64,000 nt of DNA from assembly GCA_947479455.1 (NCBI GenBank), contig CANJZE010000008.1, positions 66,798-130,797 on the forward strand, written 5' to 3'. How positions within the stretch are numbered: position 1 is the first letter of the stretch; every line of letters begins with the position of its first letter. Below, one piece after another: positions 8,295 to 17,510 of the stretch. This DNA comes from Bacteroidota bacterium. GTDB taxonomy: Bacteria > Bacteroidota > Bacteroidia > Chitinophagales > LD1. Position numbers and translations under genes: made by a program. Below the pieces are notes generated by a model, which worked only from the letters and a program-made list of their open reading frames with translations, was not told where the DNA came from and made no database searches.

Positions 8295-9411
8295 TAAATA
8301 TTTTTAAAACTTCTTGCACTTCGCTTTCAGTATTAAATCTTCCCAACGAAAACCTAATTGAAGAAAACGCATCATCATCAGACAAAGCCATTGCTTTCAA
8401 AACATGAGAGGGCTCAATAATTGCTGAAGTGCAAGCTGAACCATTTGACACTGCAACATTTTTCATTTTCGCAATTAGCACATTTGCGTCTATACCAGGG
8501 AAACAAATATTGGTGACATTATACATTCTGTCTTGCGTTGAACCATTTACAAATGCCCTATGCAATTTTAGCAACTCACTTTCAAGTTCATCTCTGAGAA
8601 ATAAAATTCTATTTTTATCGTTTCCCATTTCTGCCTTTGCAATCTCACACGCTTTACCCATAGCGACAATTGCAGGAACGTTCAATGTCCCGCTTCGTAA
8701 TCCATTTTCATGTCCACCTCCATGTTGCAAAGCATCCAACTTGATTTTATTTTTCTTCAGCCCTCTTACATACAAAGCTCCAAGCCCTTTTGCGCCATAA
8801 AATTTATGAGCAGAAAAAGTCATTAGGTCAACACCCAATTCAGCTACATCTGTCGCAATTTTCCCAACTGCTTGCGTTGCATCGCTCATCAAAATCGCAC
8901 CTGCATTATGAGTAATATTTGCAATCTCTTTAACCGGTTGTAAAACACCTGTTTCATTATTTGCAAGCATCACACATACAAGAATTGAGTCGCTTCGCAA
9001 TTCGGTCTTCAAATTTTCCAAATTAATCAATCCGTCATTTTTCACAGGAAGATAACTCACATCAAAACCGATTGTTTCGAGATATTTACATGTATCGAGA
9101 ACGGCTTTATGTTCAGTCTCAACAGTAATAATATGTTTGCCTCTACTCTGATTTGCTAAAGCAAATCCTTTCAAAGCAAGATTGATACTTTCAGTAGCCC
9201 CAGAAGTGAAAATGATTTCAGTTGCATCGGCAGAAATTAAATCAGCAATTGTTTCCCGGGATTGGTCAACAGCTTTGGCACTGTTTAACCCAAATTGATG
9301 AATGCTGGAGGAGTTACCATATTGTTTTTCAAAATACGGTAACATCGCATCAAGAACTCTTGAATCTATTTCAGTAGTTGCATTATTATCAAGATAGATA
9401 ATTTCTTTCAT
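8260..9411 (-). CDS. Cysteine desulfurase (NifS/IscS class V aminotransferase; DndA/SspA-like)
   Basis: Motifs IYLDNNATT, FTSGATESINLA, SAHKFYGAKGLGALYV (PLP lysine) and SNGSACTS (catalytic Cys loop). It is the first gene of the minus-strand PT operon. Confidence 0.9.
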   Translation of the reverse strand: MKEIIYLDNNATTEIDSRVLDAMLPYFEKQYGNSSSIHQFGLNSAKAVDQSRETIADLISADATEIIFTSGATESINLALKGFALANQSRGKHIITVETEHKAVLDTCKYLETIGFDVSYLPVKNDGLINLENLKTELRSDSILVCVMLANNETGVLQPVKEIANITHNAGAILMSDATQAVGKIATDVAELGVDLMTFSAHKFYGAKGLGALYVRGLKKNKIKLDALQHGGGHENGLRSGTLNVPAIVAMGKACEIAKAEMGNDKNRILFLRDELESELLKLHRAFVNGSTQDRMYNVTNICFPGIDANVLIAKMKNVAVSNGSACTSAIIEPSHVLKAMALSDDDAFSSIRFSLGRFNTESEVQEVLKIFSESLQSTTNYA

Positions 9412-9514
9412 TAAATGCCAATATAGGAAAGAAGAGGGATTCCCGTAATTTGACTACCAAATTCGTGGCATCTTTATTTGTTACCCTTTATTTTTCATCT
9501 TCTATTTTTACGGT

Positions 9515-11005
9515 ATGAGTTCTAATAATCTTCACATTCTTTCCAAATCCACTTTCGTCCGTGGCTGTATCTGCAAGAAAAGTCTCTGGCTGTCCAAACA
9601 CAGAAGAGATTTAATTCCGCCCACCCCCGCAGGTCAACAATTTATCTTTGACCAAGGCCACGAGGTCGGCAAACTGGCACGGCAGCTATTTCCTGGTGGT
9701 GTTGACGCAAGTTCTGCTACCCCGTTCGATTACCAACCATCTTTAGAACTTACCCAAAAACTTATTGCCGAAGACAGGCATGTAATTTACGAAGCAGCAT
9801 TTCAACATGATGGTGTGTTAGCGGCACTTGATATTTTGGTAAAGAAAGAAGATGGATGGCATGCGTTCGAGGTGAAATCATCCACGAAGGTTGCTGACAT
9901 AAATGTTACTGATGCAGCACTTCAATATTGGGTGATGCAAAATTCCGGTTTGAAATTGCAGGACATCTCAATCATCCACATCAATAACGAGTATGAAAGA
10001 ACCGGTGAAATTGAACCCGAAAAATTATTCAAAACCGAATCAATTCTTTATTTGGTTCTTGCTTTACAAGATGAAATTACGGAGCAAGTAAAAGAATTAA
10101 AGAGGGTTGCTATGGATAAAAGCTGTCCGGTTGTTCCTAACGGAAAGCAATGCACCACACCTTGGGCTTGTTCTTTCAAAGACCATTGCTGGAACGAATC
10201 GAAGGTGCCGGATGAATCTATTCTTGATTTCGATTTATACAGAAAGGAAGAACGCTTCAAATTGTTTCATTCCGGCATAAAGCAGATTGCAGATGTTCCT
10301 AATTGGGAGCTGTTGAAAGTTCCATACAATTATGTAGTTGAAGCACACCGGAATAAAGGCATTTATGTAGATGACATTCAACTTAAAAAATTCATGGAAG
10401 GCATAACCTATCCAATCTACTTCATGGATTTTGAAACTGTGCGCTTTGCGGTTCCTAAATTTAATAACTCCTATCCATACGAGCAGATACCGAATCAGTA
10501 TTCAATTCATGTTTTAGATAATGAAAATGCGGAACCGGTTCATCTCTCTTATCTGGCTGACCCTGCTAAAGAGTTCAGAATGGATTTTACAGAAACACTT
10601 CTCAAAGATTTAGGCAACAACGGAACTATTCTTGTTTACAATGTCTCCTTCGAGCGTTCAAGATTAAAAATGCTGGCATTTCTGTTTCCGCAATATGAAT
10701 CGCAAATAAACTCTGTAATAGAACGATTGTTAGACTTGGCATTCCCGTTCCAAAAAAAGTTTTTTTACGACCACAAATTTTCCTGCTCATATTCCATAAA
10801 AGATGTATTGCCGGTGCTTGCTCCTGATTTGAGTTACAAAAATCTGACCGTTAACAACGGTGACGATGCCAGCATAATATTTATGAAAATGATGGAAGAG
10901 CCTGATAAAGACTGGTCAGCCGAAAGAAAAAACCTACTCGAATACTGCGGATTGGATACTTGGGCGATGGTTCGGATTTTCCGGTATCTGAATACGATTG
11001 TATGA
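9515..11005 (+). CDS. DUF2779-type protein with an N-terminal Cas4/RecB-like nuclease region
   Basis: The 496-aa product has an N-terminus SKSTFVRGCICKKSLWL, a Cys cluster CPVVPNGKQCTTPWACSFKDHCW and a C-terminal FMDFETV... region, all typical of DUF2779 proteins. Confidence 0.6.
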   Translation: MSSNNLHILSKSTFVRGCICKKSLWLSKHRRDLIPPTPAGQQFIFDQGHEVGKLARQLFPGGVDASSATPFDYQPSLELTQKLIAEDRHVIYEAAFQHDGVLAALDILVKKEDGWHAFEVKSSTKVADINVTDAALQYWVMQNSGLKLQDISIIHINNEYERTGEIEPEKLFKTESILYLVLALQDEITEQVKELKRVAMDKSCPVVPNGKQCTTPWACSFKDHCWNESKVPDESILDFDLYRKEERFKLFHSGIKQIADVPNWELLKVPYNYVVEAHRNKGIYVDDIQLKKFMEGITYPIYFMDFETVRFAVPKFNNSYPYEQIPNQYSIHVLDNENAEPVHLSYLADPAKEFRMDFTETLLKDLGNNGTILVYNVSFERSRLKMLAFLFPQYESQINSVIERLLDLAFPFQKKFFYDHKFSCSYSIKDVLPVLAPDLSYKNLTVNNGDDASIIFMKMMEEPDKDWSAERKNLLEYCGLDTWAMVRIFRYLNTIV

Positions 11006-11032: not shown

Positions 11033-11878
11033 TTAACCCGTTGCAATATTCCAAGAGATGCAGTTGAGTATTCCACCTTTTTTAGCAAGCTCATTGCTTT
11101 TTACAGTTACTATCCTTTGCCCATGGAATAATTCTTCAAATTTCTTTGTCGCCTTCTCATCTTCAGGGAAGTCAAAAACTGGAACGAAGACAACATTCTG
11201 CATTTCTAAATAGTTGATGTAAATTCTACAAGCACTGGTGTAAGGTTTGTTATCGTAAGGATTGTAAGGCAATTCTTCCCAATCAAGTCCCGCGTTATAC
11301 AATGCCGTTCGGAAAGCAACCTGAAATTCATCCTTATTTTTTGCATACCGGTTGATTAAAACCGTTTTTTCATCGAGGAATCTAACCATGCCATCAGCGT
11401 GACCGGTAAAGTCGTGCCGGTCTGATGGTATAACAATTACTCTGTCTACTTCAAGGAGTTTCTCCAATTCTCTTATGAGTTTTCTTTCATCCGGTTTAGG
11501 ATTCTCTTTAAAAATCCGGTCAGTTACTATTGCCTTGTTTTTGGACTTTACAACGTTCCCTCCATCCAGAATAATGTCGCTCTTAATTTCGGTTCTTATG
11601 CCTCTGGCTTTGCAGATTGATTCTGTGTCCGAGATAGACTTCACTCCGCTTTTGGTATTTCGCAAGTAGCCCGGATTGTAAGTAAAGGGGACAAATTTTT
11701 CTTTGTCAACTTGAATTGGCATATAGTCCCTCGACCAAACATCTTTCGTTCCTGGCAGCCACTTATTTTCAATACCATTTTCTTTCAAAGCTTTATCGAA
11801 CTCGTAAAAGAATGCTGGATATTTTTTAGGTAAGCAGTCAGCGAGATATAGAATATTGGTTTCTGAATCTACTACCAT
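11033..11878 (-). CDS. Peptidyl-arginine/agmatine deiminase-fold (PAD_porph family) enzyme
   Basis: Motifs DVWSRDYMP, LDGGNVV, FTGHADGMVRF, YINYLEMQNVVFVPVF and GGILNCISW (catalytic Cys) match the guanidino-modifying enzyme pattern. The preferred start is the ATG at 11878, which overlaps the upstream stop as TAATG. Confidence 0.7.
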   Translation of the reverse strand: MVVDSETNILYLADCLPKKYPAFFYEFDKALKENGIENKWLPGTKDVWSRDYMPIQVDKEKFVPFTYNPGYLRNTKSGVKSISDTESICKARGIRTEIKSDIILDGGNVVKSKNKAIVTDRIFKENPKPDERKLIRELEKLLEVDRVIVIPSDRHDFTGHADGMVRFLDEKTVLINRYAKNKDEFQVAFRTALYNAGLDWEELPYNPYDNKPYTSACRIYINYLEMQNVVFVPVFDFPEDEKATKKFEELFHGQRIVTVKSNELAKKGGILNCISWNIATG

Positions 11879-12534
11879 TATTGTGCTACCAATTTTGCGT
11901 CTAAGTGATTGAAGTAGCAATAATACTTTTCAAAATATTTCATCTCCTCTTCCGACTCAGGATAAAAAATATTGTGTCGTTTGCCTTTATAGATTGGTGC
12001 GTTCAATGAGTTTGAATGAACTTCAAGTCGGAGTGGTGAAGCCGAATCGAAAACGAACTTTCCCTTTCCAGTGGCCAGCCGAGCCACTTCTTCTATGCCA
12101 ATATTGTCTATGATTTCTTTTACAATATTGCTTATGCCTTCAGTGCATTTATTCGTTCCGATATTTTCAATCTGACGTATCAGAATTCCACCATAGTTCA
12201 TGTGTCTCTTATTCCCAAAAGTAATATCGAGTCCTCTATGCTTATTCTTCAAATAAGCAGCCGGTGTTTTAAAACGGTGAAAATACCACTCACCAAATTC
12301 AGCCTGCCGTGGTTCAGTCTTATATTGGTTACTGTGAGCATAAGGGTCGTGGTGGCGATAATGAACGCTGTCGAAGTAAAATTCTATCTCCTTTATCAGG
12401 AAGGTGGATTCACCGGCAACTAACTTAGTGTTACGCAGTAGTTCTGTCGCAATCTTATCGAATGCACTTTCCAGTTCAAGAAGCGGCAGAGTATCAACTG
12501 AAATGTCTGTAAGGATTTTTTCTAAATCTGTCAT
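11878..12534 (-). CDS. Hypothetical protein with motifs reminiscent of the AAG/Mpg 3-methyladenine DNA glycosylase fold
   Basis: The order IATELLRNTKLV...IKEIEFY...HHDPYAHSN...GEWYFHRF...GGILIRQIE parallels the Mpg pattern LLGK.LV...IVETEAY...DPASHA...YVY...AVLIRALE. This is an eye alignment only. Confidence 0.35.
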   Translation of the reverse strand: MTDLEKILTDISVDTLPLLELESAFDKIATELLRNTKLVAGESTFLIKEIEFYFDSVHYRHHDPYAHSNQYKTEPRQAEFGEWYFHRFKTPAAYLKNKHRGLDITFGNKRHMNYGGILIRQIENIGTNKCTEGISNIVKEIIDNIGIEEVARLATGKGKFVFDSASPLRLEVHSNSLNAPIYKGKRHNIFYPESEEEMKYFEKYYCYFNHLDAKLVAQ

Positions 12535-12564
12535 AATGAATTTTGGATTAAGTGTCCGTGAAAG

Positions 12565-14070
12565 CTATTTTGAAGTAAGGGCTGCAATTATTTTATCATA
12601 GCCTCCTATCATGTTATTCTCCGTAATATAGGGTTGTCTTGCATTCTTTGTATAGAGCAAGTTCGGATAGCCCTGTAATTCGGTTACTGCGTTGAGCCAA
12701 AGGTTCTTGCTGCGGGTAATAATAATTACAGCATCGCGCTTAATGGCTTCACGCACGAGGTGGAAGTTATATTCCTGTGTAGGGAGATATTTTTTACCAG
12801 CCCCAAATTCATTCTCGATAAATTTATGAGGAACGGATTTAAACTTCTTTGAAACGTATGGGAAGAACTGAATCTTACTTAGCTTTTTGCCAAGGACTTC
12901 TTTGCCAAAATATTCTTCTAATATCCGTAGCCTCTTTTTCCAATAATCCGAATATTCAGCGTATTCTTCATCCAAACAATACAAAGGACATTCGAACCGG
13001 TTACTGTGAGTTAGCTCTTTCAGAAACCAATCCCGATATTTTCCATAGAAGTCCTTCTCTTCTTCATTCTCGTCAAACCCCGGATTCAAAGTGAGCAAAA
13101 CAACTTTTGAATTGAATACATCTCCCATAAACGCAGCCGGAAAAATTTCCGTATGAATCTTAAACAATTCTGAATGTTCGTTCTTTAAAGAATTATTGAA
13201 CCGGTCAATTATTTTGGACTCGGCAGGATGAATAAAATAATCGCCTTGGTTGTAAGAGTTTAATTCAAACCAGGGATTTGTCATGGGAGATTTATTAAGG
13301 TAAATGATTTCGGTCAAATCTATTGCAAAGTTCATCAAGTGCTGTTTCCTTTTTTCAGAGGAATAAGCCAGTTCTTGCAAGTGCATATCCGGCACGTGCT
13401 TTTTGCAAAGTCTGAATTGTAACAGACTCATGCCCATTTCAGGAAGCCAATCTATATTCGCATCGCCTATTCGCTCAAAAATAGATTGGAGAAAACTAAA
13501 CAGATTGATATAGGTGTGAAGTAAAACATTCTCAGCTTTCTCTCTTCGAATCAATGAATTTTCGATTCGTTTATCATTAAAATCAATTCCGAAGAATCTT
13601 GATTGTATTTTGTATTTATCTTCACTTTTGCCGTTGTGTCTGTAATCAATATAGCTGGCAACTAAATTTTTAATGCTATAGGTCGGAATGACTTTGCTTT
13701 TAAGCAGAGAAATAAGTGTTTGAACCAATTCGTTTTCTGTTTTTCCATCGAACTGTTTAGAGATTTTGTAATTGACGATGTCCTCTGAAATCAGAAATGA
13801 CAACAAGTGAATCAAAGAACCTTTCAGATTATTTAGTATATGCTTATACCCTTCGGAACAATAATCTTGTTTGTATTCATTTATCAATTGTGGTAAGTCA
13901 TATCCGTGATAAACAATTTTTGCAAGAGTTCCTATTTTTTCATCCGGTGTGGTTGTCTTAAATTCATGGGAAAGGCTATCCAGAAGGGAACGCCAGTTGT
14001 CAACCTTTATAGTTTGCTCAACTACTTCTGTCAATCGCTCGGAGGGAGCTTCTAATTGTAATGTATTCAT
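12565..14070 (-). CDS. Hypothetical 501-aa protein; the C-terminal ~200 aa has a UDG-superfamily-like LNPG motif
   Basis: It is the first gene of the 14070->11033 operon. KVVLLTLNPGF resembles motif A of the MUG/SMUG families (GINPG/GMNPG), and later beta-strand-like segments are AVIIITRS and LLYTKNARQP. The N-terminal ~300 aa are helical with no recognised motif. Confidence 0.3.
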   Translation of the reverse strand: MNTLQLEAPSERLTEVVEQTIKVDNWRSLLDSLSHEFKTTTPDEKIGTLAKIVYHGYDLPQLINEYKQDYCSEGYKHILNNLKGSLIHLLSFLISEDIVNYKISKQFDGKTENELVQTLISLLKSKVIPTYSIKNLVASYIDYRHNGKSEDKYKIQSRFFGIDFNDKRIENSLIRREKAENVLLHTYINLFSFLQSIFERIGDANIDWLPEMGMSLLQFRLCKKHVPDMHLQELAYSSEKRKQHLMNFAIDLTEIIYLNKSPMTNPWFELNSYNQGDYFIHPAESKIIDRFNNSLKNEHSELFKIHTEIFPAAFMGDVFNSKVVLLTLNPGFDENEEEKDFYGKYRDWFLKELTHSNRFECPLYCLDEEYAEYSDYWKKRLRILEEYFGKEVLGKKLSKIQFFPYVSKKFKSVPHKFIENEFGAGKKYLPTQEYNFHLVREAIKRDAVIIITRSKNLWLNAVTELQGYPNLLYTKNARQPYITENNMIGGYDKIIAALTSK

Positions 14071-14142
14071 GACGCGAAAATAACTCCCGATTACGCAATG
14101 TATTTGCGTAGAGAAATGTTTTTCCGTATAGAGTAGTGAAAT

Positions 14143-14775
14143 TCAATTGTTCTTGAGCGTTTTCATGAACTCTTCCCTGCTGATAAATTTCGCTCCCATT
14201 TTTTGAAGGTGCTGCGTGTATACCTGGCAGTCTATCAGTTCAAATTTACCGGAACGGCACAAGGCAATCAAGGCGAGCTTCGAAGTATTCGGCAGTTTAC
14301 TGAACATACTTTCACCGCAGAATACCTTGCCCACTACCACACCATAAAGGCCACCGACAAGCGTCTCTCCTTGCCATACTTCGACAGACTGCGCAATTTT
14401 TTTATTGTGGAGACGGGTATAAGCGTCTTTCATATCATCATGTATCCATGTTCCGCTTTGGCCTTTGCGTCTGATACCTGAGCACCGGGTGATTACTTCG
14501 TCAAAGGCTGTGTTCCATTTAATCTCATATTTCGCGGACTTGATTTGCTGCCGCATACTATGCGATACTTTCACCTCACCCGGCACAATTACAAATCGTT
14601 CATGCGGACTAAACCAAAGGATAGGTTCCTCTTCTGAATACCAAGGAAAGATTCCGTTCTGGTATGCTAACAACAACCGTTCCTCAGATAAGTCACCACC
14701 AATGGCAAGCAAGCCGTCATCATCGGCAAGGGATGGTTTGGGGAAAATAATTTCATCGGTGAGTCGAAAGAGCAT
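14143..14775 (-). CDS. aat: Leucyl/phenylalanyl-tRNA--protein transferase
   Basis: LLAIGGDLSEERLLLAYQNGIFPWY...ILWFSPHERFVI...GGLYGV..G.VFCGESMF is the canonical Aat pattern, in a 210-aa product. Confidence 0.9.
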   Translation of the reverse strand: MLFRLTDEIIFPKPSLADDDGLLAIGGDLSEERLLLAYQNGIFPWYSEEEPILWFSPHERFVIVPGEVKVSHSMRQQIKSAKYEIKWNTAFDEVITRCSGIRRKGQSGTWIHDDMKDAYTRLHNKKIAQSVEVWQGETLVGGLYGVVVGKVFCGESMFSKLPNTSKLALIALCRSGKFELIDCQVYTQHLQKMGAKFISREEFMKTLKNN

Positions 14776-14812: not shown

Positions 14813-15484
14813 CTATCCCAGCGTCACGCACACTCCGATGTGGTCACTCAGCTTTTTATCCTCATTCCAAACGGATGTCACCGGTTTCAGTGATTTCAAA
14901 AAAGAAACGGAGATGGCGATGTGGTCAATGTTCTCTGGGATATTCTGCGTCAGGTTTTCAACCTTTAACTCATTGAAACAGGAGTTTATCTTTTGCCGAC
15001 CATCCTTTGTATAGTAGTAGTTGTCAGCGAAGGAAATATTGAAGTCACCGGCTACGCAGATGTTTCCTATGCCGCAGATTCGCTCCCAATCGGCAAGCTG
15101 TTCATTGAGGTCGATATTGAAACTCTCTCTTCTATTGCCATGAATCCCGATGACAGTTCCGTATACATTCAAATCACCTATTGGTGTTCTGATACCGATG
15201 CAGATACTCGTGAAGCCATCGTATGTTTTCATATACCGGTTTGCGGGATACTTAGTCCAGATGGTCGTTCGGTTCTCGCCTTTTTTGTAATAAGGTTCGT
15301 CCAAGAGTAGCAGAGAAGCGGTGGCAAACGGATTGTATGCTTCACCTGGATGAATTATTGAACTCGTCTCCGTAAGGATTAAAATATCCGCGTCAACCTC
15401 TTTCAACGCGTCAACTATTTTCGTGTTTCTCGTTTTGGAAGAATCATTCGGTCGCTCTACGTTCCATGTCGCAATTTTCATCAT
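14813..15484 (-). CDS. Endonuclease/exonuclease/phosphatase (EEP) family protein
   Basis: Motifs IATWNVERPN, DADILILTET, VAGDFN and a C-terminal SDHIGV are EEP catalytic motifs. The gene is transcribed divergently from the RT gene. Confidence 0.75.
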   Translation of the reverse strand: MMKIATWNVERPNDSSKTRNTKIVDALKEVDADILILTETSSIIHPGEAYNPFATASLLLLDEPYYKKGENRTTIWTKYPANRYMKTYDGFTSICIGIRTPIGDLNVYGTVIGIHGNRRESFNIDLNEQLADWERICGIGNICVAGDFNISFADNYYYTKDGRQKINSCFNELKVENLTQNIPENIDHIAISVSFLKSLKPVTSVWNEDKKLSDHIGVCVTLG

Positions 15485-15588: not shown

Positions 15589-15736
15589 AACATCTAAGGC
15601 GCGGAACATAGGAGGATAACAGCGTTGCTTGTCTCAGGTAGTTATCCGGTGCATTGAGAACCTGCTTTGAATGATTGCAATCTTTTGAGCAGCGTTGCTG
15701 CAAAATGCTTTTTAGCGGTTACCGGCCTTAGATGTT
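15589..15736 (+). ncRNA. Candidate structured RNA element immediately upstream of and overlapping the RT start
   Basis: A 12-bp perfect inverted repeat, aacatctaaggc (15589-15600) / gccttagatgtt (15725-15736), encloses hairpins ggataac...gttatcc (15614-15647) and gcagc-gtt-gctgc (15689-15701). The 10-mer cagcgttgct occurs twice (15620, 15690). Confidence 0.35.
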
Positions 15737-17510
15737 TTTTATGAGAACATACGCGACCTACTTCACCTACCCCAAAATCTTATTCGCACTCGTGGCGAAA
15801 AGGCTTGCCTTATCTACAAGAAGACACGATGAGATTTTTCTTAACAACATCAGCGTTCGCAGAACTCAAAAATTTGAACCATCGGATTCCGAGAAAATAC
15901 TTTCGGAAATATTCCCACCCCGAAATATTTGGGTCAGGGCGTCAAAGAAGAAGAGGATGAGCGCCACGGATAACCCTGAAAAAATCAGATTCCAAGAGTT
16001 ATTTACCACGGTGATGAAAGCGAGAGCAGAGGCACGGCAAACAGGTGTTGTTCCAGACTGGCTTAAAAAACTCAATTGCCTAATATCGGAAATCAGGGAA
16101 TCTATGATGGCGCCGGCATCGCTCGCAAAAATTAAACCAGCCGAACAAGCCTACCTTCTGAAAAATAAAAAAACGGCAGAACACCGCGTAATAGCCAGGT
16201 ATTCTCTTACCGACAGCATTATATCAAGCCTGGTGAGCGAATACCTAACGGACCATACAGATGCCGCACTGAACCGACCTTACTTCTCAGATAGCAGCTA
16301 CGCTTTCAGAAGCGCCAGACAGTCAAAGAAAGGCGGGCGGGTATTTAGTTATCATTCAGCCACCAGTGACATCGAGGAATACAGACGGATGAATATCGAC
16401 AAGGGAATCTACGTGGCTGAGGTTGACTTGGAGAAATTCTTTGACACTATTAACCACAGCGTCCTTTTGCATAGTCTCGAAAAAATGGTTGAACATTTCA
16501 GGTCGTCAGGGAAACCGCTGGACTATCGGGCGATTGAGATTGCCAGAAACTACCTCGGCTCTTTTAGCTTTAATCTGGATGCCTTGCCGAACGAAATTAC
16601 TGCCGAACGTGAGTTTAAATGGCCGGCTGCTAAACTGCAATCGTTAGGAGTGAATATTTATGAAGAGAAAGTTGGTGTTGCCCAAGGCGGTGCATTGTCA
16701 TGCTTTTTCGCCAACCTGATAATGCACGAGCTCGACAGCGTATTTCAAACGGGAGATTGCGACTTGAAATACCTCAGATACTGTGACGATTTTATCATCT
16801 TCCACACGAATCGCGACATGTGTCAACGGTATATTGACTTGGCGCGCAGGAAAATCCGGGAGCTGAAACTTATAGCTCACTCACCGGAGGACTACAATTT
16901 AGATGACTACAAAAAAAGAATACCGAAAAAGGGCGGCAGCAGGGATGTGAACGAATTCTGGAATTCTACGAAATCGAAAAACCCGTATAAATGGGGACAC
17001 TACGACACGGAGAACAGAATGAATGTGCCCTATGTTTCTTTTGTGGGTTATCAGCGTAGATATGATGGACTGCTCCGTGTCAGAAAGAAATCTTTAAAGA
17101 AAGAATACCAGAAGCAAAAGAATTTGGTGGACGTAGTGTTAGTGAGGATTGATTTGACCCTAAGTTCGAAAGTTAAACTCACCCGTAAGCAAATAATTTT
17201 TAGAACGGAGCAAAAGCTGATAGCGATGTCGGTTGGTAAGAAAAATGTCTTCAATGCAGGCAAGACGCTCGGATTCTGTTGGTGCAACGGATTCAAAGAG
17301 ATGAATTCGGGAGTGAAGAAATCCAATGCCCAGTTAAAATATTTAGACAGGTCACGCGAGAGACAACTGGGCCGGTTGAGAAATAAAATGAAGAGGCTGC
17401 CGCACAGAAAATCAAAGGGGCAAAAAGAGAAGAGTGTCATGCCTCTTCATAGTCCATTGACCAGCTACTTTACTTATTTCAATAAAACGGAAAAAGGACT
17501 CTCAGATTAA
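15732..17510 (+). CDS. Reverse transcriptase (stand-alone; group II-like/UG-DRT-like, class unresolved)
   Basis: RT motifs appear in order: RVIARYSLTDSIISSLV (1), YAFRS (2a), YVAEVDLEKFFDTINH (3/A), GVAQGGALSCFFANLIMHELD (4/B), YLRYCDDFIIF (5/C, YxDD), LKLIAH (6) and VSFVGYQ (7). The C-terminus is basic. The start codon is uncertain (ATG 15732 lies inside a 12-bp stem; the next ATG is at 15741). Confidence 0.9.
   Translation: MFFMRTYATYFTYPKILFALVAKRLALSTRRHDEIFLNNISVRRTQKFEPSDSEKILSEIFPPRNIWVRASKKKRMSATDNPEKIRFQELFTTVMKARAEARQTGVVPDWLKKLNCLISEIRESMMAPASLAKIKPAEQAYLLKNKKTAEHRVIARYSLTDSIISSLVSEYLTDHTDAALNRPYFSDSSYAFRSARQSKKGGRVFSYHSATSDIEEYRRMNIDKGIYVAEVDLEKFFDTINHSVLLHSLEKMVEHFRSSGKPLDYRAIEIARNYLGSFSFNLDALPNEITAEREFKWPAAKLQSLGVNIYEEKVGVAQGGALSCFFANLIMHELDSVFQTGDCDLKYLRYCDDFIIFHTNRDMCQRYIDLARRKIRELKLIAHSPEDYNLDDYKKRIPKKGGSRDVNEFWNSTKSKNPYKWGHYDTENRMNVPYVSFVGYQRRYDGLLRVRKKSLKKEYQKQKNLVDVVLVRIDLTLSSKVKLTRKQIIFRTEQKLIAMSVGKKNVFNAGKTLGFCWCNGFKEMNSGVKKSNAQLKYLDRSRERQLGRLRNKMKRLPHRKSKGQKEKSVMPLHSPLTSYFTYFNKTEKGLSD

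Follow-up and report, generated by a model that had tools for sequence, protein, structure and literature searches.

In the 64,000-nucleotide window, by which the whole stretch of analysed DNA is meant, a gene for a predicted N-glycosylase of the AAG/Mpg fold (gene B) is coupled to a gene for a short pentein (gene C), and comparison with related loci shows that these two genes form the conserved unit. In this unit the deiminase is conserved and its partner exchangeable (AAG-, UDG- or HNH-like), and gene A, which precedes the pair, appears to be an optional modular third member. The same comparisons indicate a horizontally mobile cassette with a patchy, cargo-like distribution. It is probable that the cassette serves some form of conflict or defence directed at DNA. 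The fuller reading, a horizontally mobile DNA-directed conflict cassette that is most probably anti-phage and has an edit-then-excise core made of B and C, is the one we prefer, and we put it slightly short of an even chance.

The arrangement is given in Table 1. A first-pass annotation of this DNA had described three linked genes on one strand, separated by the short spacer and joined by the stop/start overlap listed there, and direct reading verified this. All of the motifs it had quoted are also present (KVVLLTLNPGF in A; EIEFY, DPYAH, WYFHRF and ILIRQIE in B; GGILNCISW in C). The ORF list offers an alternative TTG start that would lengthen gene C to 295 aa. The shorter reading is taken as correct because the homologues are all 274-292 aa and start at the ATG position. 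On one flank lie a DUF2779 gene (9515-11005) and genes for a cysteine desulfurase, an SNF2 helicase and an SMC-like ATPase, which form a phosphorothioation-type set. The earlier placement of the operon next to such a module stands on this side. It does not on the other, where the genes for Leu/Phe-tRNA protein transferase (aat, 14143-14775) and an EEP nuclease (14813-15484) intervene before the RT gene (15732-17510).

Table 1. Coordinates of the operon features in the window
Feature	Position	Strand	Length, character or basis
Gene A	12565..14070	minus	501 aa
Gene A, N-terminal domain (residues 1-262)	13285..14070	minus	all-helical, modular (AF2, Foldseek, representatives search)
Gene A, C-terminal domain (residues 263-501)	12565..13284	minus	UDG-superfamily-type, glycosylase-like, distant Brig1 relative (NF047634)
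Spacer between genes A and B	12535..12564	minus	30 nt; direct sequence reading
Gene B, predicted divergent AAG/Mpg-fold, DNA-glycosylase-like	11878..12534	minus	218 aa
Coupling of genes B and C	11876..11880	minus	TAATG stop/start overlap; direct sequence reading
Gene C, short PAD_porph/agmatine-deiminase pentein	11033..11878	minus	281 aa; ATG at 11876-11878

First, the assignment of gene B draws on its predicted structure. The AF2 model (pLDDT 92.6, pTM 0.90) was compared with the PDB by Foldseek, and human AAG (1f6o and 1ewn) gave the sole significant matches (E <= 0.001), with a probability of 1.00 and TM scores of 0.53-0.58, at about 14% identity. Gene B itself has no Pfam match at E <= 1 and does not reach the gathering score of PF02245, the AAG/Mpg profile, which is matched by 11 of 38 gene B homologues (best E 3.3e-6). 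In an hhalign comparison with eight canonical bacterial Mpg sequences (probability 82%, E 1e-5), IKEIEFY was paired with IVETEAY, so that EIEFY falls on ETEAY, and GGILIRQIE with HAVLIRALEP. EIEFY is the catalytic-Glu motif of gene B (E51, Y53); the corresponding E-x-E-x-Y motif of human AAG comprises the catalytic Glu125, together with Tyr127. The E-x-E-x-Y, LIR, GP and RVG(L/I) motifs follow in identical order in both families, and E51, Y53, H61, D63, H67, Y84, G101, D103, G116, I117, L118 and R120 are invariant over the 38 sequences. Fold match, hhalign alignment and PF02245 matches thus agree with the AAG/Mpg likeness noticed earlier by eye, and gene B is best regarded as a divergent AAG/Mpg-fold protein predicted to be an N-glycosylase. 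Unlike AAG/Mpg enzymes, it is not a housekeeping gene: it is mobile and patchily distributed, evolves fast and comes coupled to a pentein. The PF02245 profile has no match at E <= 0.001 in its own genome, and our literature search found no description of an antiviral glycosylase with the AAG fold.

The family of gene C is recognized directly from sequence. It matches Pfam PF04371 with 99.2 bits (cut-off 25; E 3.5e-28) over positions 72-319 of the 321-position profile, and lacks positions 1-71, roughly the first 70. The predicted catalytic set (D51, H160, D162, C273) is intact, and D46, W48, D51, H160, D162 and C273, which align with the motifs of 6b10, are invariant among 27 family sequences. 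A profile of the gene C family matches the solved agmatine deiminases 6b10 (7e-21), 1xkn, 3hvm and 2jer. These results bear out its earlier description as a guanidino-modifying-enzyme-fold protein. It shares family membership and the Asp/His/Asp/Cys constellation with AguA and Porphyromonas PAD (PF04371; 6b10, 3hvm, 2jer, 4yt9). In contrast to AguA, gene C is about 70-90 residues shorter, is coupled to a DNA enzyme instead of N-carbamoylputrescine amidase, and comes as a second copy in addition to a canonical agmatine deiminase of full length that the genome encodes elsewhere (366-aa ORF, 397 bits). The AguA equivalog models TIGR03380 and NF010070 give gene C 51 and 46 bits, short of their cut-offs of 381.8 and 483. 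It is a pentein of the agmatine-deiminase/PAD_porph family distinct from the canonical aguA of this genome.

The pairing of B and C recurs widely, in several hundred bacterial genomes. Related deiminase loci were found 553 times, in at least 553 species genomes, and 80 of these loci were retrieved. In 72 of the 80, a coupled gene on the same strand lies directly upstream of the deiminase, and most junctions overlap or abut (-4 to +1 nt), commonly by a 4-nt overlap. Among these 72 upstream genes, 44 are AAG-like, 7-8 are UDG-like and 12-13 are of an HTH + HNH-like class whose HNH assignment found no confirmation in Pfam. By eye, this last class has Arg at the expected catalytic His. One UDG-like member matches TIGR04274, DNA-deoxyinosine glycosylase, at E 1.9e-9. 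The recurrent classes are nucleic-acid enzymes or DNA binders (64/72 upstream genes), which indicates DNA rather than free agmatine as the target of the system. The pair also occurs with its gene order reversed, where the AAG-like member is a distant one, and in one locus (L093) an AAG-like protein and the deiminase are fused into a single polypeptide of 514 aa. The two partners diverge at different rates: the pentein has a median pairwise identity of 57% and the AAG-like partner one of 31%, which may be the signature of an arms race. No model of PADLOC-DB v2.0.0 matches gene A, B or C at E <= 1, and the literature search found no description of a glycosylase-deiminase pairing.

From these observations we infer that the pentein acts on DNA, and we also infer which step comes first, which base is involved and that the effect is anti-phage. 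In the preferred reading, the core would be a fast-evolving, base-flipping N-glycosylase of the AAG/Mpg fold translationally coupled to a conserved pentein hydrolase. The pentein, through its Cys-His-Asp machinery, would catalyse hydrolysis of an amidino- or guanidino-type substituent on a non-canonical base of invading DNA, for which the formamidino group of an archaeosine-type 7-deazaguanine is a candidate. The product would be the base form that the partner glycosylase excises, and the abasic sites would halt replication, with the foreign DNA broken as a result. Besides archaeosine-type 7-formamidino-7-deazaguanine, a novel arginine/agmatine-type hypermodification may be considered as a pentein target. 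We know of no pentein that works on nucleic acid and of no guanidino- or agmatine-type DNA modification; to our knowledge, the archaeosine amidine is the sole established candidate. The earlier proposal of anti-phage action on amidino- or guanidino-bearing bases may hold, being compatible with all findings. A trim-then-excise order on such a base specifically is nevertheless rather unlikely. Similarly doubtful is the wider version in which the pentein either edits an amidino- or guanidino-type group or deiminates the ring amidine of a base in foreign DNA, and the exchangeable partner excises or cleaves. Several observations run against the preferred reading. If the trimmed base is constant, the extreme divergence of the glycosylase needs an extra cause, for example phage inhibitors. 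The Arg of the HNH-like partner class and the modest defence-island enrichment described below count against it too, as do the weak Foldseek scores for a UDG-type fold in gene A and the ability of A-type proteins to stand alone. If the wider version is true, gene C would be the first enzyme of the guanidino-modifying superfamily with a DNA substrate and gene B the first antiviral AAG-fold glycosylase, and an 'edit, then excise' immune system would be widespread, in at least 553 species genomes.

The closest precedent, by analogy, is Brig3-BapA from environmental bacteria, in which an anti-phage 5hmC DNA glycosylase and a de-glucosylating hydrolase, which alters a substituent of the base and thereby lets the glycosylase act, are encoded in one operon and a stable complex of both proteins is not required (Mejia-Pitta et al., bioRxiv 10.64898/2026.02.25.707755). 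The first-pass annotation had known of no glycosylase partnered with a PAD-fold enzyme. With Brig3-BapA, a glycosylase with a base-modifying hydrolase does have a precedent, and the statement holds for the folds, which are unrelated. The likeness is one of architecture only, a glycosylase and a putative base-editing hydrolase in one operon, and the two-step logic of the proposed mechanism would be that of Brig3-BapA reached from unrelated folds. Brig3 is UDG-type, whereas the glycosylase of the B-C pair is AAG-fold and its accessory enzyme a pentein with a Cys nucleophile; BapA removes a glycoside, whereas amidine or guanidine hydrolysis is proposed for gene C. Moreover, in the B-C cassette the accessory enzyme is conserved, the glycosylase is exchangeable and a natural fusion exists. 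Dag1/Dag2 and the UDG-like defence glycosylases of integrons (Getz et al., bioRxiv 10.1101/2025.10.29.685425) establish the principle that glycosylases of diverse folds can be recruited to counter phages whose guanines or thymidines are modified, and Dag1 is active against dG+ and dPreQ0 phages (bioRxiv 10.1101/2025.10.29.685425). The Dag proteins, unlike B-C, are single-gene systems of the HhH superfamily, and that preprint makes no mention of an AAG fold or a deiminase partner.

The partner classes also bear on two other ways in which the pair may work. The pentein might itself deiminate a DNA base, normal or modified, at its exocyclic amidine and so make a lesion that the glycosylase removes. 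Adenine would become hypoxanthine, guanine would become xanthine, or a cytosine-type base would become a uracil-type one, and the outcome would be DNA shredding, in the service of abortive infection or of an attack on foreign DNA. Hypoxanthine excision is established for the AAG/Mpg family, so that the AAG-like partners, and the UDG-like ones through their TIGR04274 match, are both related to hypoxanthine excisers; the fused protein would also suit two sequential activities on one DNA. However, pentein pockets bind a guanidinium at a flexible chain end via two Asp, both of which are conserved in gene C, and a substrate whose amidine is planar and embedded in a ring would be without precedent. 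The DNA deaminases known to us are all of other folds than the pentein, an attack on normal bases would be self-toxic with no evident regulator, and the HNH-like partner class is left unexplained. We therefore hold this lesion-making scheme to be improbable. Alternatively, the partner may serve mainly to target DNA, and the pentein would citrullinate arginines of DNA-bound proteins, such as phage DNA-protecting or internal proteins or polymerases. Indeed, the family contains the Porphyromonas peptidyl-arginine deiminase (PPAD), loss of the N-terminal 70 or so residues could expose the active site to macromolecules, and DNA binding is the sole feature common to all partner classes. Yet across 38 divergent sequences the AAG-like partner keeps its catalytic Glu and pocket residues without exception, which argues that glycosylase chemistry itself is selected and that this partner is more than a DNA-binding module. 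The PPAD match of the gene C family profile (about 1e-6) is also much weaker than its agmatine-deiminase matches, and a tethered protein deiminase seems very unlikely.

Distribution and context weigh on a reading outside defence, namely repair or salvage. Here the pair would handle guanidino-type damage (e.g., guanidinohydantoin), excised bases or nucleoside-type small molecules, and a base released by the glycosylase would then be detoxified or recycled by the pentein. AAG enzymes are classical repair enzymes, and hydrolysis of a free base after excision would be chemically easier for a pentein than action on DNA. In addition, flanking genes over the 80 loci are mostly ordinary, many of them metabolic, and few loci lie beside known defence systems, so that defence-island enrichment is modest. 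On the other hand, of 25 genomes of the genus 4 carry the pentein, with a low 41-55% identity to the window copy, and in one relative (G023) the slot between DUF2779 and aat is occupied by an HNH_2 nuclease instead. One related locus lies inside a conjugative element, and GmrSD, a PD-(D/E)xK REase, Gabija, Uzume and Iet are neighbours at others. Patchiness, slot replacement, exchange and fast divergence of the partner, mobile and defence-rich surroundings and an associated Brig1-like gene are untypical of housekeeping repair, and there is little probability that repair or salvage is the function of the pair.

Gene A differs from B and C in its loose attachment to the cassette. In the AF2 model (pLDDT 90.6), residues 13-258 are all-helical, and this N-terminal domain has no Foldseek match in PDB or BFVD. 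In a search of representatives, the N and C halves match distinct sets of proteins. Residues 132-266 share 38% identity with the N-terminal part of 526-aa Rufibacter and Adhaeribacter proteins that have a GIY-YIG-like C-terminus (Pfam E 6e-4), and another protein (P0112), in which the same type of N-domain carries a different C-domain, is solitary, with no deiminase nearby. The N-domain is thus modular, joined to varied DNA-acting domains or solitary. For the C-terminal domain, NF047634 (Brig1) is the only family matched: at E 2.2e-5 (24.1 bits) by the whole protein, at 5e-6 (26.2 bits) by the domain and by 32 of 40 family members (best E 1.9e-13), all far under the equivalog cut-off of 230 bits. 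Motif A of gene A is LNPG (N329) within KVVLLTLNPGF, residues 322-332, and resembles the xNPG motif of MUG/SMUG/TDG; in the family, N67 is nearly invariant, P68 invariant and G69 (nearly) invariant. In motif B, P-Y-x-S, P142 and Y143 are (nearly) invariant and S145 is invariant. The window copy reads PYVS, with Val for the His of the consensus PYHS, a position that is variable among close relatives. A profile search of the C-domain against PDB sequences found nothing. With the two-domain protein as Foldseek query, UDG, UdgX, TDG and viral UDG recur as top matches, all weak (E 0.3-3, probability <= 0.72, target TM 0.23-0.40), so that a UDG-superfamily-type fold is only suggested by these scores. 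Together with the NF047634 matches, they agree with the UDG likeness proposed earlier, and the profile and structure searches gave no confident non-glycosylase assignment for A or B. By sequence, the domain is a distant relative and not an equivalog of Brig1, an experimentally anti-phage glycosylase (Hossain et al., 2024, Nature, PMC11078745). It differs from Brig1 also by its 262-aa helical fusion and its operon with two other enzymes. Its family, with more than 1000 matching representative clusters, far exceeds in size the set of 42 homologues reported for Brig1 (PMC11078745).

The three genes do co-occur outside this genome, B and C in the 80-locus set and the complete A-B-C operon in two further assemblies (L121/L122). 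The three-gene system proposed earlier thus recurs independently, with its conserved unit narrowed to B-C and gene A optional. In the preferred reading, gene A would be a second, independent Brig1-related glycosylase that probably broadens the range of modified bases. A considerable possibility, which we rate below an even chance, is that gene A makes up a single-gene defence system of its own adjoining B-C, and that the operon is two neighbouring systems. Brig1 acts alone (PMC11078745), and most relatives of the C-domain are proteins of about 220 aa that stand alone. A gene of the gene A N-domain type lies upstream in just 3 of the 80 genome-scan loci, and additionally in the window and in Rufibacter DG15C (L007), and one B-C locus (L099) is without gene A. 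Since A-type proteins, like P0112 above, are able to stand alone, A may be an adjacent independent system and not a working part. Against this, gene A or a stand-alone C-domain gene lies on the same strand upstream of B in the window, L121/L122 and L097/L098, and the spacing of about 30 nt is repeated in L097 and L121. In L097/L098 a stand-alone Brig1-like gene takes the place of gene A, and that of L097 (242 aa) is 80% identical to residues 263-501. In Hymenobacteraceae, the N-domain::GIY-YIG protein precedes a UDG-like/deiminase pair, again in the gene A position, so that the pair is repeatedly accompanied by A-type genes, in two different versions.

Genes A, B and C follow one another in the window with a spacer of 30 nt between A and B, and the stop of B overlaps the start of C by a single base in TAATG (11876-11880). 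The three-gene operon described in the first-pass annotation was thus confirmed, and every motif that it had quoted for the three proteins was found in the translated ORFs. A longer, 295-aa reading of C from a TTG start was rejected, since the homologues all start at the ATG position. A sigma-70-type scan was uninformative, with 16 promoter-like sites against 11 expected and 4 terminator-like sites against 4.1 expected. The 72-nt spacer between gene A and aat, the Leu/Phe-tRNA protein transferase gene beyond it, contains a 7-bp inverted repeat, tacgcaa-tgtat-ttgcgta (14091-14109), a possible operator or weak terminator.

Open reading frames of the operon in the window
Feature	Position	Strand	Description
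Gene A	12565-14070	minus	ORF, 501 aa
Gene B	11878-12534	minus	ORF, 218 aa
Gene C	11033-11878	minus	ORF, 281 aa

What is conserved across genomes is the B-C pair, in which the partner of the deiminase is exchangeable. Relatives of C were collected by a pattern scan with a deiminase alignment using one genome per species; 553 loci were found and 80 of them fetched, and the genes upstream were classified with our own ORF calling and HMMs. A same-strand gene directly precedes the deiminase gene in 72 of the 80 loci, mostly with a 4-nt overlap or abutting it, that is, in translational coupling. This partner is AAG-like in 44 of the 72 loci, and 11 such partners (415-421 aa; for example L020:5736-7001 and L035:447-1694) begin with an additional conserved stretch of about 200 aa that matches no family. 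UDG-like partners occupy 7-8 of the 72 loci, and one of them matches TIGR04274 (DNA-deoxyinosine glycosylase, 1.9e-9). At 12-13 loci the partner is a protein of about 165 aa (range about 150-190 aa) with an HTH and an HNH-like CxxC...CxxC module (for example L018:6468-7004, L022:6516-7004 and L036:6561-7004). Pfam matched the HTH alone in this class, and no HNH; the HNH-like module was judged by eye, and its expected catalytic His (E-x-D-H) reads Arg (E-x-D-R). The exchange takes place among DNA enzymes. Lacibacter has the two genes in reversed order, a 246-aa PAD_porph gene together with that of a distant AAG-like protein. The two functions are even joined in one polypeptide, a 514-aa Rosetta-stone fusion on record MT836602.1 (L093:6972-8516), of which residues 5-219 are AAG-like (E 6.6e-24) and residues 224-513 are the deiminase (E 4.6e-67). 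The partner is the fast-evolving member: across the 44 AAG-type loci, pairs of deiminases share a median identity of 57% and pairs of AAG-like proteins 31%, and 12% of locus pairs are unalignable by BLASTP.

Other genes accompany some of these loci. In about 10 of the 80 (L016:7843-8127, L022:7847-8125, L036:7837-8133, L046:3774-4052, L057:1447-1728, L079:7845-8120 and others), the gene right after that of the deiminase encodes an acidic, conserved protein about 92 aa long (MQTENYKENLKEALKNL...WNDSVPIGE..QFDFELF...). It occurs with AAG-like and with HNH-like partners and is missing from the window; a role in regulation, inhibition or DNA mimicry is conceivable. In Hymenobacteraceae, the deiminase is followed by a further nuclease gene, whose 359-aa product bears an HNH-looking motif at its C-terminus (L007:5864-6943 and L045:7870-8949).

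The folds that the first-pass annotation had guessed for the operon proteins were supported by profile and structure comparisons. Gene B itself has no match in Pfam, NCBIfam or PADLOC. No sequence in PDB matched it and a profile search there with the AAG-like alignment gave nothing useful, so that its assignment comes from fold comparison only. The AlphaFold2 model, made with the family alignment as input, reached a pLDDT of 92.6 and a pTM of 0.90. In Foldseek against PDB, E <= 0.001 was obtained only for human AAG (1f6o and 1ewn; probability 1.00, TM 0.53-0.58), the next-best match having an E of 0.3. Among 104 homologues found, 38 were aligned, with identity to gene B of the window down to 27%; 11 of these 38 match PF02245 (best E 3.3e-6), and gene B stays outside that family by Pfam's own threshold. 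Profile-profile comparison of the gene B family with eight canonical bacterial Mpg proteins from same-order genomes gave a probability of 82% and an E of 1e-5. It aligned IKEIEFY with IVETEAY, the catalytic Glu motif of Mpg, and paired GGILIRQIE with HAVLIRALEP; after these come, in the same order in both, the motifs GP, RVGL/RVGI and YRY/WRF. E51, Y53, H61, D63, H67, Y84, G101, D103, G116, I117, L118 and R120 are invariant in the 38 sequences. From the fold match, the profile alignment and these invariant active-site residues, gene B is a highly diverged protein of the AAG superfamily, with selection acting on its active-site positions. Some more distant AAG-like proteins, which bear an HTH at the C-terminus, occur without a deiminase. 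Homologues of the AAG-like family also occur in Mortierellaceae fungi (Linnemannia and Podila; P0069, P0071, P0072, P0075, P0076 and P0081; about 294-322 aa, E 1e-10 to 1e-15); their C-terminal extension is also present in some bacterial members (HTH_23 matches).

Gene C encodes a short pentein. It scores 99 bits against PAD_porph (PF04371), over profile positions 72-319 only, and fails the agmatine-deiminase equivalog models. Its family profile matches the solved agmatine deiminases 6b10 (7e-21), 1xkn, 3hvm and 2jer, and PPAD more weakly. D46, W48, D51, H160, D162 and C273, the guanidinium-binding and the Cys/His/Asp catalytic positions, are invariant in the family. A canonical full-length agmatine deiminase (397 bits) is encoded on another contig of the same genome, and therefore C is not the polyamine-pathway enzyme. 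A housekeeping role as agmatine deiminase was thus rejected, C being in addition truncated and always coupled to DNA enzymes.

Gene A consists of two domains, as a full HMMER search of 1.8 billion representatives matched separate protein sets with residues 1-262 and 263-501. The C-domain belongs to a large family: whole A retrieved 1172 representatives at E <= 0.001, mostly through this domain, and the majority are stand-alone proteins some 220 aa long. The sole family model matched by the C-domain is NCBIfam NF047634, 'anti-phage DNA glycosylase Brig1' (E 5e-6); 32 of 40 family members match this model too (best 1.9e-13), and every score is well short of the equivalog cut-off. Searches of PDB by sequence and by profile with A and its family alignment gave nothing useful, so NCBIfam is the only source of this assignment. 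The family has an xNPG motif, like MUG, SMUG and TDG, and a P-Y-x-S motif. With the full-length, two-domain model (pLDDT 90.6) as query, Foldseek returned weak matches only, among which UDG, UdgX, TDG and viral UDGs recurred. The operon combines the glycosylase fold of B and a probable second glycosylase-type fold in A with one guanidino-hydrolase fold, and the catalytic residues are conserved. The N-domain is all-helical in the model; it had no Foldseek match, and family searches gave only a touch to bAvd at E 0.13.

Conservation of the gene neighbourhood had been proposed as a check, and the full A-B-C operon indeed recurs at 85% identity in two independent assemblies (L121 and L122), with aat before A as in the window. 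In L097 and L098, a stand-alone 242-aa gene, 80% identical to residues 263-501, takes the position of A and starts exactly at the position of Met263; B there is 90% identical to that of the window, and a PD-(D/E)xK REase-type gene comes after C (in L097, the REase-ARP protein at 8573-9616). L099 has a B 74% identical to the window's and no A. The N-domain is elsewhere fused to other C-terminal domains, for example a GIY-YIG-like one in 526-aa proteins of Rufibacter and Adhaeribacter, and in Hymenobacteraceae such a fusion lies upstream of a UDG-like/deiminase pair with GmrSD adjoining. The representatives search also found the N-domain alone, and a protein related to the N-domain can stand by itself, away from any deiminase. 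That A is a separate system lying next to the B-C pair is conceivable, if rather the less probable reading. A is better described as an optional, modular third member of the cassette, because it is replaced in L097 and L098, missing in L099, and its N-domain is otherwise fused or alone.

An anti-phage function of A-B-C in base editing and excision is plausible from the folds and the linkage. The substrate of pentein C would be the base itself or an amidino or guanidino group linked to DNA; excision of the product or of related modified bases would fall to the glycosylases, and abasic sites would arise in foreign DNA. Archaeosine (dG+), which occurs in phages such as 9g, is the sole established amidine-bearing DNA base known to us. 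Phage 9g is a known target of the HhH glycosylase Dag1, in a paper that mentions neither the AAG fold nor deiminases (bioRxiv 10.1101/2025.10.29.685425). The best precedent is Brig3-BapA, the first known glycosylase aided by a base-editing enzyme, reported in 2026, in which a hydrolase de-glucosylates 5hmC and the glycosylase can then excise it (bioRxiv 10.64898/2026.02.25.707755). Alternatively, C might deiminate a purine amidine and the glycosylase remove the product, in keeping with the relation of both glycosylase partner classes, AAG-like and UDG-like, to hypoxanthine-excising enzymes; this route is ranked lower, since pentein pocket chemistry and self-toxicity speak against it. By analogy, A-B-C would fall among the glycosylase-based anti-phage systems with a base-editing partner.

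To our knowledge, anti-phage DNA glycosylases have been recognised only since 2024, and the pentein superfamily has to date been linked only to guanidines that are free or peptidyl. Full-text literature searches found no paper joining a deiminase or PAD_porph with a glycosylase or phage defence, and none of the three proteins has a model in PADLOC. If the proposed function is true, the edit-and-excise principle would reach two further enzyme folds, AAG and pentein, the pentein superfamily would gain a new biochemical role, and phage DNA modifications with amidino or guanidino groups would form a class read by defence systems. The window has led to a Brig1-related third gene with a modular N-domain, to the UDG-like and HNH-like partner classes with the deoxyinosine-glycosylase link, and to an empty or alternative slot in a congener. 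The pair is compact (1.5 kb) and abundant in Bacteroidota, and the catalytic residues of the cassette are clearly identifiable, so that it is directly testable; with the activities confirmed, the enzymes would be possible tools to detect or remove specific modified bases.

The distribution of the operon is cargo-like. Of 25 same-genus genomes, only 4, the window's own included, have a relative of C, and the other three copies are only 41-55% identical to that of the window. In one of the congeners (G023), the interval between DUF2779 (80% identical) and aat (85%) holds, instead of the operon, a gene for a 321-aa HNH_2-type nuclease (L115:8777-9742), which indicates that the operon is cargo in a variable slot. 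DUF2779 was rejected as a cassette member, as it stays in place there. The genome of the window has two aat genes, 53% identical (window 14143-14775 and G000:C17:3011-3628); copies of the window's aat at E <= 1e-30 are found in only 9 of the 25 same-genus genomes, and aat accompanies the operon in L121 and L122. The slot adjoins a gene set of cysteine desulfurase, SNF2 helicase and SMC-like ATPase, with the RT gene nearby, and elsewhere the B-C pair lies inside a conjugative element or beside GmrSD. Defence-island association is supportive in the window and weak overall, since most of the 149 flanking genes sampled across the 80 loci are ordinary and a few encode Gabija, Uzume or Iet proteins; enrichment is modest. 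The pair is nearly missing from phage genomes (7 of 50,697 records). MT836602.1 ('Bacteriophage sp.', unverified), the one 'phage' record with the pair, was rejected as a phage-borne case, as it has an RT and lacks recognisable virion genes; it resembles a defence island rather than a phage. The RT of this contig has 551 aa, and directly upstream of the fusion is a 471-aa protein with a weak ADP-ribosylglycohydrolase match. Bacteroides phages of about 167-179 kb (DAC16, DAC19/20/22/23 and SJC03) encode a 350-aa PAD_porph-like protein (L092:6704-7756), beside which no glycosylase partner was noticed; it is 27% identical to C and is surrounded by hypothetical genes.
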